Below, piece by piece: positions 14,341 to 20,436 of a DNA stretch of 64,000 nt. The position numbers and the translations under genes were made by a program. This DNA is from Betaproteobacteria bacterium. GTDB taxonomy: Bacteria > Pseudomonadota > Gammaproteobacteria > Burkholderiales > Burkholderiaceae_C. The notes under the pieces were generated by a model. It did no database searches and was not told the origin of the DNA. It saw only the letters and a list, made by a program, of their open reading frames with translations. Every line of letters starts with the position of its first letter. Position 1 is the stretch's first letter. The stretch covers positions 2,358 to 66,357 of the forward strand of contig JANOWE010000174.1 in the NCBI GenBank assembly GCA_031417735.1, given 5' to 3'.

Positions 14341-14421
14341 TTTCTGCCGATGACGTCACCTTTGCGGACCGGGCCTGCGTCGCCGGGTCAGCCGCCATAG
14401 CCAAGCTCCACGTCCTTGTCC

Positions 14422-15501
14422 ATGCCTCCATATCCCGACCGCGCAGCGCCCGGCCACGCCTTGCGCCACCCCGGCGTGCTGGCCGCGCTGCTGGCCGCTG
14501 CCATGTTCGGCGCCGGCACACCGCTGGCCAAAAGCCTGTTGGGCGCCACCGATCCCTGGCTGCTGGCCGGCCTGCTGTACCTGGGCTCGGGCCTGGGCCT
14601 GGCGCTCTGGCGGTTGTTCAGCCGGGCCCAGGCGGTGCAACTGCCGCCCGGCCATTGGCGCTGGCTGGCGGGGGCAGTGCTGGCCGGCGGGGTGCTGGGC
14701 CCGCTGCTGCTGATGCTGGGCCTGTCGCGCATGCCGGCCTCGGGTGCGTCGCTGCTGCTCAATGCAGAGGCGGTGTTCACTGCCTTGCTGGCCTGGTGTG
14801 TCTTCAAGGAAAACGTCGACCGCCGCATTGCGCTGGGCATGGTGGCCATCGTTGCCGGCGCCGTGGTGCTGAGCTGGCCCGGCCAGGCCGATCTGGGCCG
14901 GGCCTGGCCGGCGCTGGCGGTGCTGGGCGCCTGCCTGGCCTGGGGCATAGACAACAACCTCACCCGCCAGGTCTCGCTGACCGACGCCAGCTGGATCGCG
15001 ATGGTCAAGGGCCTGGTCGCGGGCAGTGTCAACCTGGCTCTGGCCTGGACGCTGGGCGGCAACCCGTCATGGCCGTCACCGCCGGTGGTGGCCGCTGCCC
15101 TGGTGCTGGGCCTGGCCGCCTACGGCGTGAGCCTGACCTTGTTTGTGCTGGCGCTGCGCCACCTGGGCTCGGCGCGCACCGGGGCCTACTTTTCGGTCGC
15201 GCCGTTCTTTGGCGCGCTGCTGTCGCTGTGGTGGCTGGACGAGCCCGTCAGCACCAGTCTGGTTCTGGCCGGCGGCCTGATGGCGCTGGGCGTGTGGCTG
15301 CACCTGAGCGAGCGCCATGAGCATCTGCACCACCATGAACCGCAGGCGCATGCCCACGAACATGAGCATGACGAGCACCACCGGCATGCGCATGACGGCC
15401 CTGTCGTCGGCGGTCGCCACAGCCACGCCCATCGGCATGAGGCACTGAGCCATGCCCACGCGCATTACCCGGACGAGCACCACCGCCATGCGCATGAATG
15501 A
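14422..15501 (+). CDS. DMT/EamA-family transporter with His-rich C-terminal tail
   Basis: About 10 hydrophobic segments; YLGSGLG, WGIDNNLTR and ARTGAYFSVAPFFG motifs; tail HEHLHHHEPQAHAHEHEH...HYPDEHHRHAH. Confidence 0.9.
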   Translation: MPPYPDRAAPGHALRHPGVLAALLAAAMFGAGTPLAKSLLGATDPWLLAGLLYLGSGLGLALWRLFSRAQAVQLPPGHWRWLAGAVLAGGVLGPLLLMLGLSRMPASGASLLLNAEAVFTALLAWCVFKENVDRRIALGMVAIVAGAVVLSWPGQADLGRAWPALAVLGACLAWGIDNNLTRQVSLTDASWIAMVKGLVAGSVNLALAWTLGGNPSWPSPPVVAAALVLGLAAYGVSLTLFVLALRHLGSARTGAYFSVAPFFGALLSLWWLDEPVSTSLVLAGGLMALGVWLHLSERHEHLHHHEPQAHAHEHEHDEHHRHAHDGPVVGGRHSHAHRHEALSHAHAHYPDEHHRHAHE

Positions 15502-15585: not shown

Positions 15586-15613
15586 GGCCGCGACAATATG
15601 CATTATGTAAAAC
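15586..15613 (+). other. dif-like (XerC/XerD) 28-bp recombination site
   Basis: GGCCGCGACAA-TATGCA-TTATGTAAAAC has an 11-6-11 layout. The right arm matches the E. coli XerD arm TTATGTTAAAT at 9/11; the left arm is divergent (5/11). AT-rich patch between convergent genes. Confidence 0.5.
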
Positions 15614-15705: not shown

Positions 15706-17205
15706 TCAGTCTTCTGGCGCGGGCCATGCCGGCGCATGGCTGCCGGGCGGCATCGCCGGCCTGGCCCAGCCTGCCGGAGTGCGCGAGAACTGCGCCGTGT
15801 GGCGCAGCGCGCGCAGACGGCCAAAGCCCGAGTACTGTTCGTCCATCAGCGCCTCAAACTCGTCGGCAGCTGGCGGCACGGTGGCCAGGTCCTGGGGCCG
15901 CTGCCCCATCTGGCGCAGCCAGTGGCCCACACCCGCCAGCGACACCCGTACCCGCCAGCTGCCGCCCTCGGTTTGCTGCCGCAGCAATGCGGCCTGAGCG
16001 CCAAAGGCCAGCAGGTGGCCGGCTGCGTAGTCCAGGATGGGCAGCGGCAGGGCCTGGGGCTGGGTCTTGCCGGCGGCTGCGGCCTCGGCCAGGTTCAGGC
16101 CGGTGGCGGTTTGCACCAGCGAATCAAAGCCGCGACGCCCGGCCCAGGGCCCCGTCCAGCCGTAGGCGCTGAGCTCGGCCACGACGATGCCGGGCCGTGC
16201 ATGCGCGAGCTGCTGCGCGCTCAGCCCACGCAGGTCCAGGCTGCCCGGGCGGTAGCCCTGCAGGAAGACATGGGCCCGTGCGCTCAGGTCCGCGAGTTGT
16301 TCGCGGCCGGCGGGTTGCCGCAGGTCGATCTGGCACGACAGCTTGCCCCGGCTGGTGTCGGCGATGGCCTCGATGTTGGGCAGATGCGGGCCATTGACCA
16401 GCAGCACGTCGGCGCCGTAGGCGGCCAGGCAGCGGCCGGCCACCGGCCCGGCGAGGATGCGGGTCAGCTCCAGCACGCGCAGGCCCGAAAGCGGCGGCCG
16501 GTCGGCGCTGACGGTGGGCCAAGGCAGCGGGTCTGCGTCAGCGATGCGGTCGATCTGCAGCAGGGCTTGAGCCGCTACCGCCTGGCCCTGGGCATGCTCA
16601 TCCCACTGCGCCAGGCTGCGCGCCGCGGCAGCCACGCCACCGGCCTGGTTCAAGACCAGTTCGACGTCTTCGGCCTGCCACCGGGTCAGCGCCTGGGTCA
16701 CGGCAGGACGCTCGGTCTGGTCGCCTTCGGGCAGCCCGAGCAGGCGCAGTGCGGCGTCGCGGTGGTGGGCAAAGTTCGCATGCAGGCGGACCCAGCCGCC
16801 GCGCTGTCCGGTCAAGGCGTCGCCGCAGCGGTACAGGCCCGACAGCTTGTCCCACATCGGCGGGGTCTGGCCGTCGATCTGGAAGCGGGCCATGCATTCC
16901 AGCGTGGCATGCCGGCGGTCAATCCGCAGCCGCTGCGGTGGCTCACCGGGGTGGCGCAGCGCCCACAGCCTGGCCGCCGCCAAGGCCGCCGCTGCCAGAC
17001 TGGCTTGCGCTGCGCTGGCCACTGCAAAACTGCTGGACAGAACGGCGGCCTGTGTCGCTGCCAGAGGCGCTGACGCGTCGTGACCCAGGTCGACCCAGGA
17101 CAAGGCCTCGGGTGTCAATCCGGCGTCGTGCCACAGCTTGGCCAGCAGCTGCTTGGCGTTGGCTGCGTCCGGAAAGGCGTGGTGCTTGGGGTGCATGACG
17201 GACAT
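15706..17205 (-). CDS. Family III CoA-transferase (CaiB/BaiF), long form with duplicated architecture
   Basis: PLSGLRVLELTRILAGP; YGADVL; TSRGKLS; QGYRPG; RRGFDSLVQ containing the catalytic Asp. Confidence 0.9.
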   Translation of the reverse strand: MSVMHPKHHAFPDAANAKQLLAKLWHDAGLTPEALSWVDLGHDASAPLAATQAAVLSSSFAVASAAQASLAAAALAAARLWALRHPGEPPQRLRIDRRHATLECMARFQIDGQTPPMWDKLSGLYRCGDALTGQRGGWVRLHANFAHHRDAALRLLGLPEGDQTERPAVTQALTRWQAEDVELVLNQAGGVAAAARSLAQWDEHAQGQAVAAQALLQIDRIADADPLPWPTVSADRPPLSGLRVLELTRILAGPVAGRCLAAYGADVLLVNGPHLPNIEAIADTSRGKLSCQIDLRQPAGREQLADLSARAHVFLQGYRPGSLDLRGLSAQQLAHARPGIVVAELSAYGWTGPWAGRRGFDSLVQTATGLNLAEAAAAGKTQPQALPLPILDYAAGHLLAFGAQAALLRQQTEGGSWRVRVSLAGVGHWLRQMGQRPQDLATVPPAADEFEALMDEQYSGFGRLRALRHTAQFSRTPAGWARPAMPPGSHAPAWPAPED

Positions 17206-17294
17206 GATTTGCGGTGCTGTTCAAGGCCCTGCCGGCAGCCAGGGCGGGCACCATGCGCCGACCATAGCAGCGGCAGAACAATCGCGCGCGGCTG

Positions 17295-17446
17295 TGTAAA
17301 TGAACTAACGCCATAGCCATGACCCTTACCTTGCCGAAGCATCGGCGTGGCCTTGCCGCAATGGCGGCACAAGAGCGTTGCCAGCGGCACCGATCTCTGC
17401 GCTGACCAGCGGCCCCGGTTGCCGCTGTGGCGTTAGTTCATTTACA
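17295..17446. repeat. Perfect 19-bp inverted repeat (17295-17313 and 17428-17446) flanking a 114-bp spacer
   Basis: TGTAAATGAACTAACGCCA ... TGGCGTTAGTTCATTTACA, exact reverse complements. Ends 8 bp before the recombinase-like ATG. Confidence 0.9.
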
Positions 17447-17454
17447 GTTCAGTC

Positions 17455-18600
17455 ATGCCCGCCCATCCTGTCCTTGCATCGCCATTGACCCTGGCCTTCG
17501 AGCAGTGGCTGCAACACCAGCAACTTCGCGGCCGGCTGCGGCTGGCCTCGTCGCAGGCCGTTTACCGGTCGATATGGGGTGCGCTCACCGATTGGTGCGG
17601 CCAGCAACAGCCGCCGTTGCGTCGCCTGGCCAGGCTCGACGCACCAACGATGCTGGCCTATGTCGGCTCGCGCGACACCGCCGCACGCAATGGCCAGGCC
17701 TTGACGGCGCGCTACCAGGCCCGGTTGCTGCGCCTGGTGGCGCGGGTCCAGCACCACGCCGCTGAGCTGGCCGCGGCACAACAGCGCGCCGACCTGGCGC
17801 AGTTGCCAACGCAGCCCCGCCCCAACCCACGACCGATGGCGGCCTCGCTCGCGCTGGGCGTCATCCGCGACGACGCCCCCAACCCGCCGGAACACCTGGG
17901 GCCAGAAGCCGCGCTGAAACTGCAGCAATGGCTGCAGTCCACGCCAGCCGAGCCCGCGTTGCGCTGGCAGGACCAACGCGACCGCTGCGCCTGCGCGCTG
18001 CAGCTGGGCGCCGGCCTGGGCCCGGGCGATCTGCGCGCACTGCGCTTGGGCGATGTGTGGTGGCAGCCCCTCCAGGCCGATGCCCTGGCCGAGCAGGATA
18101 TGAGCCTGTTGCTGCGCCCCGGCCTGTCACCGGCCGACCAAGCGCTCGCCCCAACGGCCCTGGCCGATCTTGCCGCCAGCACCCTGCCCTGGGCCCTGCA
18201 GGTGTCCGCCAACGGCAACGCACCGGCCCATCTGGCGCCACTGCCACCCTGGGCGGCGCGCCTGCTGGCGCAGTGGTTGACGCAGCGCCAGGCGCTGGCC
18301 ATGCCCGGCCCGGTGCTGCTGCCGTCCACCCGCAGTGGCAAGCCCTGGGGCAAGGTGGCGCAGTACAACGCCAGCCTGGCGGTGCTGCAGGCGGCCGGAT
18401 TGCCCAGCCGTCGCGCTGGGGGTTCGTTCCGCCTGCGCCACAGCTTTGCGCTGCAGCAGCTGGCGCTGGGCCATGCGCCGGAACTGGTGGCCCGCTGGCT
18501 GGGCGTGGCCGACCCGGCGGTGATGGCACGCTACCGTCAGGCGATGCGACCCATGCCTCTCTCACCGGTCACGACAGTGCCACCAGAGTCCCGCCGATGA
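17455..18600 (+). CDS. Tyrosine recombinase/integrase-family protein with degenerate catalytic residues
   Basis: Box I RDRCACALQLGAGLGPGDL (Arg to Gly); box II SFRLRHSF...LG-V...MARY (His to Phe, His to Val; Arg and Tyr retained). Confidence 0.75.
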   Translation: MPAHPVLASPLTLAFEQWLQHQQLRGRLRLASSQAVYRSIWGALTDWCGQQQPPLRRLARLDAPTMLAYVGSRDTAARNGQALTARYQARLLRLVARVQHHAAELAAAQQRADLAQLPTQPRPNPRPMAASLALGVIRDDAPNPPEHLGPEAALKLQQWLQSTPAEPALRWQDQRDRCACALQLGAGLGPGDLRALRLGDVWWQPLQADALAEQDMSLLLRPGLSPADQALAPTALADLAASTLPWALQVSANGNAPAHLAPLPPWAARLLAQWLTQRQALAMPGPVLLPSTRSGKPWGKVAQYNASLAVLQAAGLPSRRAGGSFRLRHSFALQQLALGHAPELVARWLGVADPAVMARYRQAMRPMPLSPVTTVPPESRR

Positions 18601-18822
18601 ACCACGCCCATCACCGGCCCGACCAGGTCGACACTGTGGTGCTGGGCGTCGGCCTGTTCTGGCTCGCCGGCCAGGGTGGCTATGGCATGCAGAGCGCCGA
18701 CGGCGCGGCGCGGCTGGCCGCCGCGCTGCCGCTGGGACAGCCGCTGCCCGATGACCTGCTGCAAACCGAACTCAATCTGCCGGCCCTGCTGGGCCCGGCG
18801 CGCTGCCGGGCTCGATGCTGGC

Positions 18823-20436
18823 TCAGGCGGTGCGCTTGCGTGCGGGCGCGCGACGCGGCGCCGCGTCGCCCACCAGGTTCAGCGTGGCCGCCTTGGCAGC
18901 AGTCTTGCGGCGCGATGCTGGCGTGGCCGCGGCAGCGATGGCCTTGCGGGGCCGGGCCGCCCTCGCCACCTTCGCAGCAACGGCCACAGGCGCCGCCAGC
19001 GCCGCTGCCGGTTCGGCCTCGATCGCACGGGCCAGCACCAGCAGTTCCTGGTGCGCCGCCAGCAGCGCGTCGGCCAGGTCGGCGATATCGGGTACCGCGC
19101 GGCGGCAGCCGATCAGGCCATAGTCGAGCCGGCCGTTGTAGCTCTGCACGGTGACGTTCAGCGCCATGCCATGGGCCGGGATCGACACCGGGTAGTAGCT
19201 GATGATCCTGGCGCCGGCAAAGTACAGCTGGGCCTGCACGCCGGGCACGTTGGAGATCACCACATTGGCCAGCGGCGGCAGCACATTGGCCAGCCGCGAG
19301 CGGCCGTAAAGCGAGGCCAGGCCCGACATCAGCCAGGGCGCGGCCAGCATCGGAAAGTCGGTCGGGATCGCCGACTTGACCCGGCTCAACATCGACTTGG
19401 TGTGGCGCGAGCCGGCGGCAATGGCCTGCAGGCGCTGCAGCGGGTCGGCCACGTCGGTGGCCAGGGTCATGGTCACCATGCTGACCTGGTTGTTGGCGCT
19501 GTCGTCGCCCTCGGCGCGCAGGCTCACCGGTACCGCGGCCGACAAGGCGCGCTCGGGCAGCTCGCGGTGGCCCAAAAAGTAGCCGCGCAACGCGCCGGCC
19601 ACGCTGGCCATGACCACATCATTGAGCGACACGCCGCAGCGCTTGGCGATCTCCTTCGCCTCGGCCAGCGGCACGGTGCGCGCGGCAAAGCGGCGCTGGT
19701 TGGTGATGGCCACGTTCATCGAGGTGCGCGGGGCCAGGAACTTCATGTCACGCCGCAGCAGCCAGGCGCGTTTGCCCTGCTCATCCTTCTCGGGCAGCAA
19801 CAGGCTCTTGGCTGCGCGGGTGATGGCCGGCAGCGCCTTGACCAATTTGACGACCTGGAGCGCGGTGTTGCTCAGCGCCGCGCCCAGCAACTCGGCCACG
19901 CCCAGCTGGTACTGGTTGCGGCGCAGCCTGGCGCGCGGCGGCTTGATGCGCCGGCCCTCGGCCACGGTGTCCATGATCGCCCGGGCCAGCGCCACACCGG
20001 CCTGGCCGTCCAGGCGCGAATGGTGAACCTTGATGTACAGCGCCACCTCGCCGCTGCGCAGCCCGTCGATGATGAAGAATTCCCACAGCGGGCGGCTGCG
20101 GTCCAGCAAGGTGGAATGCAGCCGCGCCACATACTGCTGCAGTTGGCTGTTGCTGCCCGGCTTGGGCAGGGTGATGTGGCGAATGTGGTGCTCGAGGTCG
20201 ATGTCCTCGTCCTCGACCCAGACCGGGTTGGACAGGTCAAACGGCATCAGTGCGAGCTTGCGCGTGAACACATCGGCCAGGTGCAGGCGTTCGGCCAGGC
20301 AGGCCTTGACGTCCTCGAAGAAGTCGCCGCTGTAGTTCGGCGGCAGTTCCAGCACATTGAGCGAGCCCACATGCATGGGCATTTCGGGCGACTCCAGGTG
20401 AAGAAAGGCCGCGTCTATGCCGCTGAGGTGGTTCAT
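18823..20436 (-). CDS. Wax ester synthase/diacylglycerol acyltransferase (WS/DGAT) with basic Ala/Lys/Arg-rich tail
   Basis: LSGIDAAFLHLE; PMHVG; LDRSRPLWE; catalytic HHSRLDG; SNVPG; LNVTVQSY. Confidence 0.93.
   Translation of the reverse strand: MNHLSGIDAAFLHLESPEMPMHVGSLNVLELPPNYSGDFFEDVKACLAERLHLADVFTRKLALMPFDLSNPVWVEDEDIDLEHHIRHITLPKPGSNSQLQQYVARLHSTLLDRSRPLWEFFIIDGLRSGEVALYIKVHHSRLDGQAGVALARAIMDTVAEGRRIKPPRARLRRNQYQLGVAELLGAALSNTALQVVKLVKALPAITRAAKSLLLPEKDEQGKRAWLLRRDMKFLAPRTSMNVAITNQRRFAARTVPLAEAKEIAKRCGVSLNDVVMASVAGALRGYFLGHRELPERALSAAVPVSLRAEGDDSANNQVSMVTMTLATDVADPLQRLQAIAAGSRHTKSMLSRVKSAIPTDFPMLAAPWLMSGLASLYGRSRLANVLPPLANVVISNVPGVQAQLYFAGARIISYYPVSIPAHGMALNVTVQSYNGRLDYGLIGCRRAVPDIADLADALLAAHQELLVLARAIEAEPAAALAAPVAVAAKVARAARPRKAIAAAATPASRRKTAAKAATLNLVGDAAPRRAPARKRTA

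Follow-up and report, generated by a model that had tools for sequence, protein, structure and literature searches.

A Burkholderiales family of tyrosine-recombinase-fold proteins accompanied by a convergent pair of 16-nucleotide arms: candidate non-cleaving DNA binders

The master repressor of the Bacillus subtilis prophage SPβ, MrpR (YopR; PDB 8A0A), has a recombinase fold in which Arg-I, His-II and His/Trp-III are lacking and the Tyr is kept and matters for DNA binding; MrpR represses and has a repeated element as its binding site, with no recombination seen in vitro (PMC10516654). In both sequence and structure, the closest relatives of the protein described here are the Xer recombinases (XerH, 5JJV/5JK0; XerA, 4A8E/5HXY; XerD, 1A0P/5DCF), with which it shares a simple architecture of core-binding and catalytic domains. 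Tn3 TnpR-res, Tn4430 TnpI-IRS and P1 Cre-loxP are catalytically complete enzymes whose core sites have short spacers, and the resolution systems Tn3 res/tnpR and TnpI/IRS have their site directly in front of the gene for the recombinase. Here we analyse a 64,000-nucleotide stretch of DNA from a Betaproteobacteria bacterium (assembly GCA_031417735.1, contig JANOWE010000174.1, positions 2,358 to 66,357; hereafter the window), which encodes a 381-residue tyrosine-recombinase-like protein directly downstream of a convergent pair of inverted 16-nt arms. The convergent pair accompanying this gene family is a new observation, and no description of the family was found in the literature searched. We favour, at a probability of roughly 0.55, the reading that the protein is a non-cleaving, site-specific DNA binder that autoregulates, by analogy with SPβ MrpR.

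The open reading frame (ORF) is intact, as a sequence-only reading of the window had described it (Table 1). The AlphaFold2 model of the 381-residue protein (predicted local distance difference test score 84.4, predicted template modelling score 0.66) indicates a two-domain tyrosine recombinase with core-binding and catalytic domains. The best PDB matches of the model in Foldseek are XerH, XerA, Cre, Tn1549 Int and lambda Int (E 3e-7 to 1e-3 for XerH, XerA, Cre and lambda Int), with the catalytic domain superposing on XerH at a root-mean-square deviation of ~3.1 Å over 218 columns; the MrpR structure 8A0A is not among the best 50 matches listed. The window protein scores 15.5 bits against Pfam PF00589 (Phage_integrase), below the gathering cut-off of 27.1, and 60 of 63 family members match this profile at E<=0.01. 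PHROGs returned generic integrase families only, and NCBIfam and PADLOC scans gave zero matches for the window protein. Catalytic positions were set by aligning a profile of 63 homologues to solved recombinases in the PDB. On this alignment four of the six catalytic residues are replaced, with Arg-II (R328) and the Tyr (Y360) kept, and the window protein reads GLG189PGD at box I, SF325RLR328H at box II, and then LGV351 and RY360. Arg-I becomes Gly (XerA GAGLRVSE against GAGLG189PGD), His-II becomes Phe beside the retained Arg-II (XerD PHVLRH against SF325RLR328H), His-III becomes Val (LGHSD against LGV351VD) and the Tyr is retained (QIYTH against ARY360QR). The hairpin Lys is missing (XerD GKGN-KERLVPL against ANGSAPAHEAPL, in detail GKGN-KER against ANGSAPAH), a placement that depends on a gapped loop alignment in which the conserved R/H259 sits two residues on; residues 244-264 hold no K or R at all, and of the basic residues only H259. 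The catalytic set proposed from the sequence-only reading, G-(no K)-F-R-V-Y, is thus borne out by alignment to solved structures.

The replacements extend well beyond the window. A protein database search yielded more than 322 homologues from Burkholderiales at 45-53% identity, and an exhaustive profile search returned 147 representative clusters at E<=1e-30 and 454 at E<=1e-10. The motifs GAGLGPGD.RAL, PSTRSGKPWGK, GGSFRLRHSFA and WLGV.DP.VM.RY are invariant or nearly so in alignments of 22 and 63 sequences. Residue counts were taken over 105 full-length representatives: the Arg-I position is occupied by T (66), A (12), S (10), G (7), K (7) and, once, R; the His-II position by F (57), Y (33) and H (5); and the His-III position by V, I or L in 93 and H in one. 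As judged from these alignments, the non-canonical residue set is an old, fixed trait of a large Burkholderiales family. Measured against its 90% orthologue (L013), the window gene has a ratio of non-synonymous to synonymous substitution rates (dN/dS) of 0.34, compared with 0.24 for the adjacent CoA-transferase gene; by region it lies at 0-0.3 in the structured domains and near 1 in the insert (residues 201-245) and the C-terminal tail. These ratios indicate that the gene is under purifying selection. That the protein might be a decaying integrase pseudogene with neutral substitutions, as its sub-threshold Pfam score and the deletion remnant of an adjoining DAO gene in the window genome might suggest, is left with virtually no probability: the ORF is intact, its motifs are invariant across homologues of 45-55% identity, and family-wide conservation refutes the idea. 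The sequence-only reading of a conserved non-canonical derivative holds, the same substitution pattern recurring across more than 100 representative clusters.

Saturation mutagenesis of Cre found the Tyr and the hairpin Lys to be strictly required, and Arg-I to tolerate His only, or Lys in vivo (PMC2943603). Because Arg-I, Lys, His-II and His-III are simultaneously absent, canonical cleavage by the family is unlikely in the light of these requirements.

The arms upstream of the gene form a 23-nt inverted repeat, 22/23 complementary and AT-rich within a 71% GC genome. Their core occurs twice in the 64,000-nt window, where none is expected, and no further copy is found in the 4.6-Mb assembly. 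A convergent pair likewise lies upstream of the gene in genus relatives. The pair is present with the exact core GAACTAACG in 40 of 80 loci from named genomes, and most of the loci without it carry a clade-specific variant such as AAATACACTAACGGCA...TGCCGTTAGTGTATTT in Variovorax; under a relaxed criterion the arm pair is found in 61 of the 71 loci tested. It persists in a distant member (L100), and another (L101) has a perfect 18-nt repeat containing ACTAAC/GTTAGT. The half-site consensus of the family is AAAT-(G/A)(A/C)-ACTAACG-(G/C)C, for instance AAAT-GA-ACTAACG-CC. At its three variable positions the two arms of the same element agree in 90-98% of loci, compared with 49-53% for randomly paired arms, and this agreement drops to the random level just beyond a footprint of ~16 nt. 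Spacing between the arms ranges from 45 to about 215 nt across the family. On this comparison of loci, the gene and the ACTAACG arm pair are coupled family-wide, and the coupling to adjacent repeats put forward in the sequence-only reading is upheld in orthologues by a pair that is unique in the genome and whose arms co-vary.

Table 1. Features of the window and of the encoded protein (nucleotide positions are those of the window; residues are numbered in the protein)
Feature	Position	Strand	Remark
Tyrosine-recombinase-fold gene, 381 aa	17455..18600	+	intact ORF
Core-binding domain	residues ~10-116
Linker	residues 120-148		low confidence
Catalytic-type domain	residues 150-364
Lineage-specific insert	residues 201-245
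Active-site positions	G189, F325, R328, V351, Y360		Arg-I, His-II, Arg-II, His-III and Tyr, respectively
Hairpin	residues 246-263		without Lys
Distal (left) arm TGTAAATGAACTAACGCCATAGC	17295..17317	+	conserved ~16-nt half-site AAATGAACTAACGCC
Core of distal arm GAACTAACG	17302..17310
Variable interior, 106 nt	17318..17423	.	between arms
Proximal (right) arm	17424..17446	-	reverse complement of left arm, 22/23
dif-like site GGCCGCGACAA-TATGCA-TTATGTAAAAC	15586..15613	+	paralogue of the genome's true dif
DAO remnant, ~68 aa	18597..18800
EamA-family transporter gene	14416..15501
His-rich tail of EamA protein	15320..15501
62-nt imperfect direct repeat in tail	15334..15395 and 15436..15497

The gene begins right beside the proximal arm. 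The window ATG at 17455 comes 18 nt after the end of the arm core and 8 nt after that of the repeat. Across the family, 47 of 58 loci have an in-frame start codon, usually ATG, no more than 21 nt from the proximal core, at a median distance of ~10 nt; CCGTTAGTGTATTTATG and CTGTTAGTTCATTATG are typical arm-to-start sequences. No Shine-Dalgarno sequence is present at the window start codon, and a motif resembling one occurs in 1 of the 58 loci. The hexamer TACAGT lies at -12..-7 relative to the window ATG, and a scan of 17100-17600 for sigma-70 and terminator consensus sequences gave zero matches. Given this arrangement, in which the proximal arm abuts a start codon that lacks a Shine-Dalgarno sequence, the loci suggest a leaderless or near-leaderless mRNA with a promoter and initiation region that overlap the proximal half-site.

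Between the arms lies a variable stretch. The interior is about 55-60% identical to that of the orthologue with 90% amino acid identity, diverges faster than the flanking intergenic DNA and contains no conserved ORF. It might be supposed that the arms act as a nucleic-acid structure, either as the stem of a structured 5' RNA or as an attC-like single-stranded DNA hairpin recognised in its folded form, since the 163-nt region folds at -81 kcal/mol (z = -6.8) and the length range and CTAAC...GTTAG ends of the element recall attC sites. However, that z-score stems from the repeat itself, and the interiors are not self-complementary (mean z 0.48, with 8 of 61 above 2). Furthermore, arm complementarity ends at a fixed ~16-nt edge, arm mismatches show on inspection no bias to wobble pairs on one strand, and an Rfam scan of 16900-19000 at E<=1 gave zero matches. 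With the start codon at the arm edge, most of the element is also probably untranscribed on the sense strand. A structural role for the arms is therefore very unlikely, and its attC-like form was rejected on the lack of palindromy in the interiors. Membership of the integron IntI/attC system fails likewise, with interiors that are not self-complementary and an active site that is incomplete.

The element also resembles fimS, the FimB/FimE switch, in having inverted repeats around a short intergenic segment beside a gene of the tyrosine-recombinase family, here between divergent genes. The 106-bp segment might on that model be an invertible promoter, turned over by the protein itself or a different recombinase, that renders the flanking genes phase-variable. 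In a pairwise comparison of assemblies, which report the majority form only, about 10 pairs of interiors were recognisably related, extending to moderately distant ones, and all of them aligned in the forward orientation only; this argues against frequent inversion. The conservation of the arms far exceeds the needs of a crossover site: unlike at fimS, they are long, conserved, protein-site-like repeats that abut the start codon, and they stand beside a gene whose active site is degenerate. The upstream neighbour also differs between lineages. A fimS-like switch is highly improbable on these grounds.

A dif-like site, a genuine paralogue of dif, lies further upstream in the window and is conserved in the 90% relative. 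It shares its arms and an 8-nt outer flank, CAAAGTCT, with the true dif of the genome, which is found on contig C98 (G000:C98:2230-2248, L102) and reads AACCGCGCCAA-TGTATA-TTATGTAAAAT; the central regions differ, TATGCA in the window as opposed to TGTATA. Two dif sites of this kind would be expected where a second replicon has its own dif or where an Xer-integrated element has a degenerate border. A near-canonical dif, TTTATACAATGTATATTATGTTAAAT, precedes the gene and its arm pair by 600-700 bp in one Variovorax-type lineage (L047 ~676, L049 ~2348, L060 ~2406). These observations, together with the Xer proteins being the best structural relatives, lend some colour to the idea that the protein is an Xer accessory or partner acting at the dif-like site, perhaps in the setting of a secondary replicon or of an island integrated by Xer. 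Against this, no more than 5 of 90 sequences, representing 2 lineages, have a dif or dif-like site close to the gene; genus relatives carry dif and the gene on separate contigs, and some of these contigs reach hundreds of kb; and the companion found family-wide is the ACTAACG arm pair, which is unlike dif. We consider the Xer accessory role scarcely probable, and the dif-like site is probably a neighbour of the module rather than part of it. Proximity to dif was accordingly rejected as a family trait, and the link to dif drawn in the sequence-only reading, real though it is locally, does not hold as a property of the family. Its proposal of a DNA-binding or regulatory role fares better and is the best reading available, and plasmid copies do lie by rep/par genes.

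The surroundings of the gene were read from tblastn and Pfam searches and from annotated records of plasmids. One copy of the gene is found in the window genome and in most genus relatives. In an Aquabacterium/Pseudaquabacterium-type clade its divergent upstream neighbour encodes a family III CoA-transferase (17 of 87 loci), which was considered as a conserved regulatory target and rejected as clade-specific. Downstream genes vary among chromosomal copies, and no phage or prophage, integrative and conjugative element, conjugation or transposition genes were seen around the chromosomal copies examined. Other clades have an H-NS-family gene after the recombinase-like gene (14 loci), and 7 Variovorax loci have a KorA-ParA-KorB-type operon in the vicinity. 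A single copy was found on each of fifteen large plasmids or chromids of 130 kb to 2.5 Mb, 13 of them classed as non-mobilizable. Ten plasmid or chromid contexts were inspected: rep and/or par genes lie within about 8 kb in five, type IV secretion system genes are nearby in four, the neighbourhood is metabolic in three, and an H-NS gene is immediately downstream in two. On a plasmid of Piscinibacter gummiphilus the order is parB<-parA<-rep, about nine iteron-like repeats, the arm pair and the gene. The presence of one copy per replicon and the megaplasmid position beside oriV iterons, rep, parAB and H-NS genes suggest, from context, a regulatory or architectural role linked to the replicon. 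The window genome itself has one ParB only, and ten canonical PF00589 genes with Xer-sized ones among them.

Several features of these neighbourhoods were observed in their own right. The iteron-like repeats of the P. gummiphilus plasmid (NZ_CP136338.1; L104 8230-8660), GGTGaCCaTCTATGGGAgC, stand between the rep-parA-parB operon and the module, and are probably the plasmid oriV, directly abutting the arm pair and gene. The H-NS-family gene (L103 10321-10866; L105 9050-9583) comes after the recombinase-like gene, and in its orientation, in many Variovorax copies, and is found ~2 kb downstream in an Aquabacterium subclade; the two genes may be co-expressed. A tyrosine recombinase of ~610 aa and DUF3701 type lies near parAB, a few kb from the gene, on a contig of a Burkholderiaceae metagenome-assembled genome (L016 2363-4204) and on a 709-kb plasmid of Ideonella dechloratans (L106 5497-7329). 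The DUF3701-type recombinase, parAB and the recombinase-like gene may form a recurrent trio on secondary replicons. Immediately downstream, the 90% orthologue has a gene for a flavin adenine dinucleotide-dependent oxidoreductase of the DAO family (384 aa; L013 9146-10300), which overlaps the stop of the recombinase-like gene by ATGA. The window retains a remnant of it, shortened by an internal deletion of ~950 bp at a short GyCGGC microhomology and with the original stop codon changed from TGA to CGA, which is either a real pseudogene or an artefact of the assembly. At the other side of the module, the EamA-family transporter has a long C-terminal tail rich in His (HLHHHEPQAHAHEHEHDEHHRHAHD...HSHAHRHEALSHAHAHYPDEHHRHAHE) that may be a metal-binding extension; a 62-nt imperfect direct repeat codes for this tail.

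Our preferred model is that of an Xer-related two-domain protein that would no longer perform canonical strand cleavage and would instead bind DNA in a sequence-specific manner. One monomer is envisaged to clamp each of the two inverted ~16-nt half-sites (AAAT-nn-ACTAACG-sC), 45-215 bp apart, upstream of its own gene. The proximal monomer would occlude the promoter and start of the gene and so bring about autorepression, and the distal site may reinforce repression through protein-protein bridging and DNA looping that employ the synapsis interfaces of the recombinase fold. The pocket formed by Tyr360, Arg328 and His329 may hold a phosphate of the backbone while leaving the DNA intact, as has been suggested in the case of MrpR. 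Several observations sit uneasily with this model. No helical periodicity of arm spacings is obvious by inspection, with no formal test, which speaks against strict looping. With its own promoter as the sole detectable target, the function under selection would be left unexplained. The Tyr is conserved in 98 of the 105 representatives, Arg-II in 103, His329 in 95 and R194 in 86, while position 259 is R or H in 101 (R 72, H 29) and position 359 is R or K in 97 (R 87, K 10). Such conservation exceeds the obvious needs of DNA binding and makes an alternative active site possible, in which R/H259 might substitute for the hairpin Lys, the loop alignment being gapped.

The protein might then still be an enzyme, with a remodelled active site that cleaves at the two arms as a 'split' recombination site with a very long overlap. 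Tyr360 would serve as nucleophile, with Arg328 plus the family-specific R194, R/K359 and R/H259 in place of Arg-I and Lys. The two identical elements of a replicon dimer would synapse and one strand pair would be exchanged at one arm; the Holliday junction would migrate through the identical interior and be resolved at the other arm or by host enzymes, the outcome being dimer resolution or a similar maintenance reaction. IntDOT is active without an Arg-I at the canonical position. Beyond the near-invariance of the Tyr, Arg-II, His329 and the extra basic residues, cleavage at the arms would agree with a site placed directly before the gene, an arrangement shared by many resolution systems, with the single copy per replicon and the plasmid position beside oriV iterons, rep and par, and with arms oriented as those of Xer sites, GTTA lying a few bases in from the inner edge. 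The freedom of the interior in sequence and length between species is likewise what would be expected if only identity between sister copies counts. However, four catalytic positions are replaced together, including the Lys strictly required in Cre; the genome has canonical Xer-size recombinases and dif; and chromosomal copies are far from dif in most genomes. To our knowledge, no tyrosine recombinase has an overlap of 45-215 bp. On balance we regard cleavage at the arms as unlikely, while granting it real weight. With somewhat greater reserve still, the family may be envisaged as an unrecognised Xer-derived branch with a rebuilt active site and a split site, its arms 45-215 bp apart, that forms a replicon-specific maintenance device of Burkholderiales chromosomes, chromids and megaplasmids. 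Such a device would serve in dimer resolution or in origin-proximal topology control.

The retained fold and Tyr/Arg-II pocket, the loss of Arg-I, Lys and both His residues and the coupling to a dedicated pair of half-sites bear on annotation. Hundreds of these proteins are annotated as 'site-specific integrase' by genome pipelines, implying mobile DNA where there is none, and the finding corrects this annotation. It would also carry what has been characterised in one case, phage MrpR, over to the chromosomes of cells and the backbones of megaplasmids, and suggests that recombinases repurposed as DNA binders are widespread. A large, vertically inherited family with one protein and one defined 16-nt site offers a clean experimental system, in which to ask what role a conserved Tyr pocket plays without catalysis, or whether another set of residues can support the chemistry of tyrosine recombinases.

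Compared with the systems described to date, the locus shares with Tn3 TnpR-res, Tn4430 TnpI-IRS and P1 Cre-loxP a putative site just upstream of the gene, overlapping its promoter, and an occurrence in the replicon-maintenance regions of plasmids. Its half-sites have the orientation of dif arms and a GTTA element in common with them. Xer recombinases, however, have the full R-K-H-R-H-Y set and act at sites of 28-30 bp with a central region of 6-8 bp, whereas in the Burkholderiales family four of these positions are replaced and the arms stand 45-215 bp apart; there is no consistent association with dif, and the window genome keeps canonical recombinases and dif elsewhere. The likeness to MrpR, which is known from the shared fold and residue pattern, lies in the two domains, in the replacement of Arg-I, His-II and His/Trp-III by small or hydrophobic residues and in the retained Tyr (Table 3 of PMC10516654). 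The repurposing of a recombinase fold as a DNA binder is thus already known from one phage protein, and the module that the sequence-only reading thought might be undescribed is not wholly so, MrpR being a characterised recombinase-fold repressor. MrpR is nevertheless a repressor of phage lysogeny with many sites across its prophage, whereas the Burkholderiales family is single-copy on chromosomes and megaplasmids, has no prophage genes around its chromosomal copies and carries just one pair of inverted half-sites, placed by the start codon of its own gene. The family differs from this precedent in its Xer-like lineage, in the additional loss of the hairpin Lys that MrpR keeps, in its inverted half-sites at the start codon and in its setting on chromosomes and megaplasmids.

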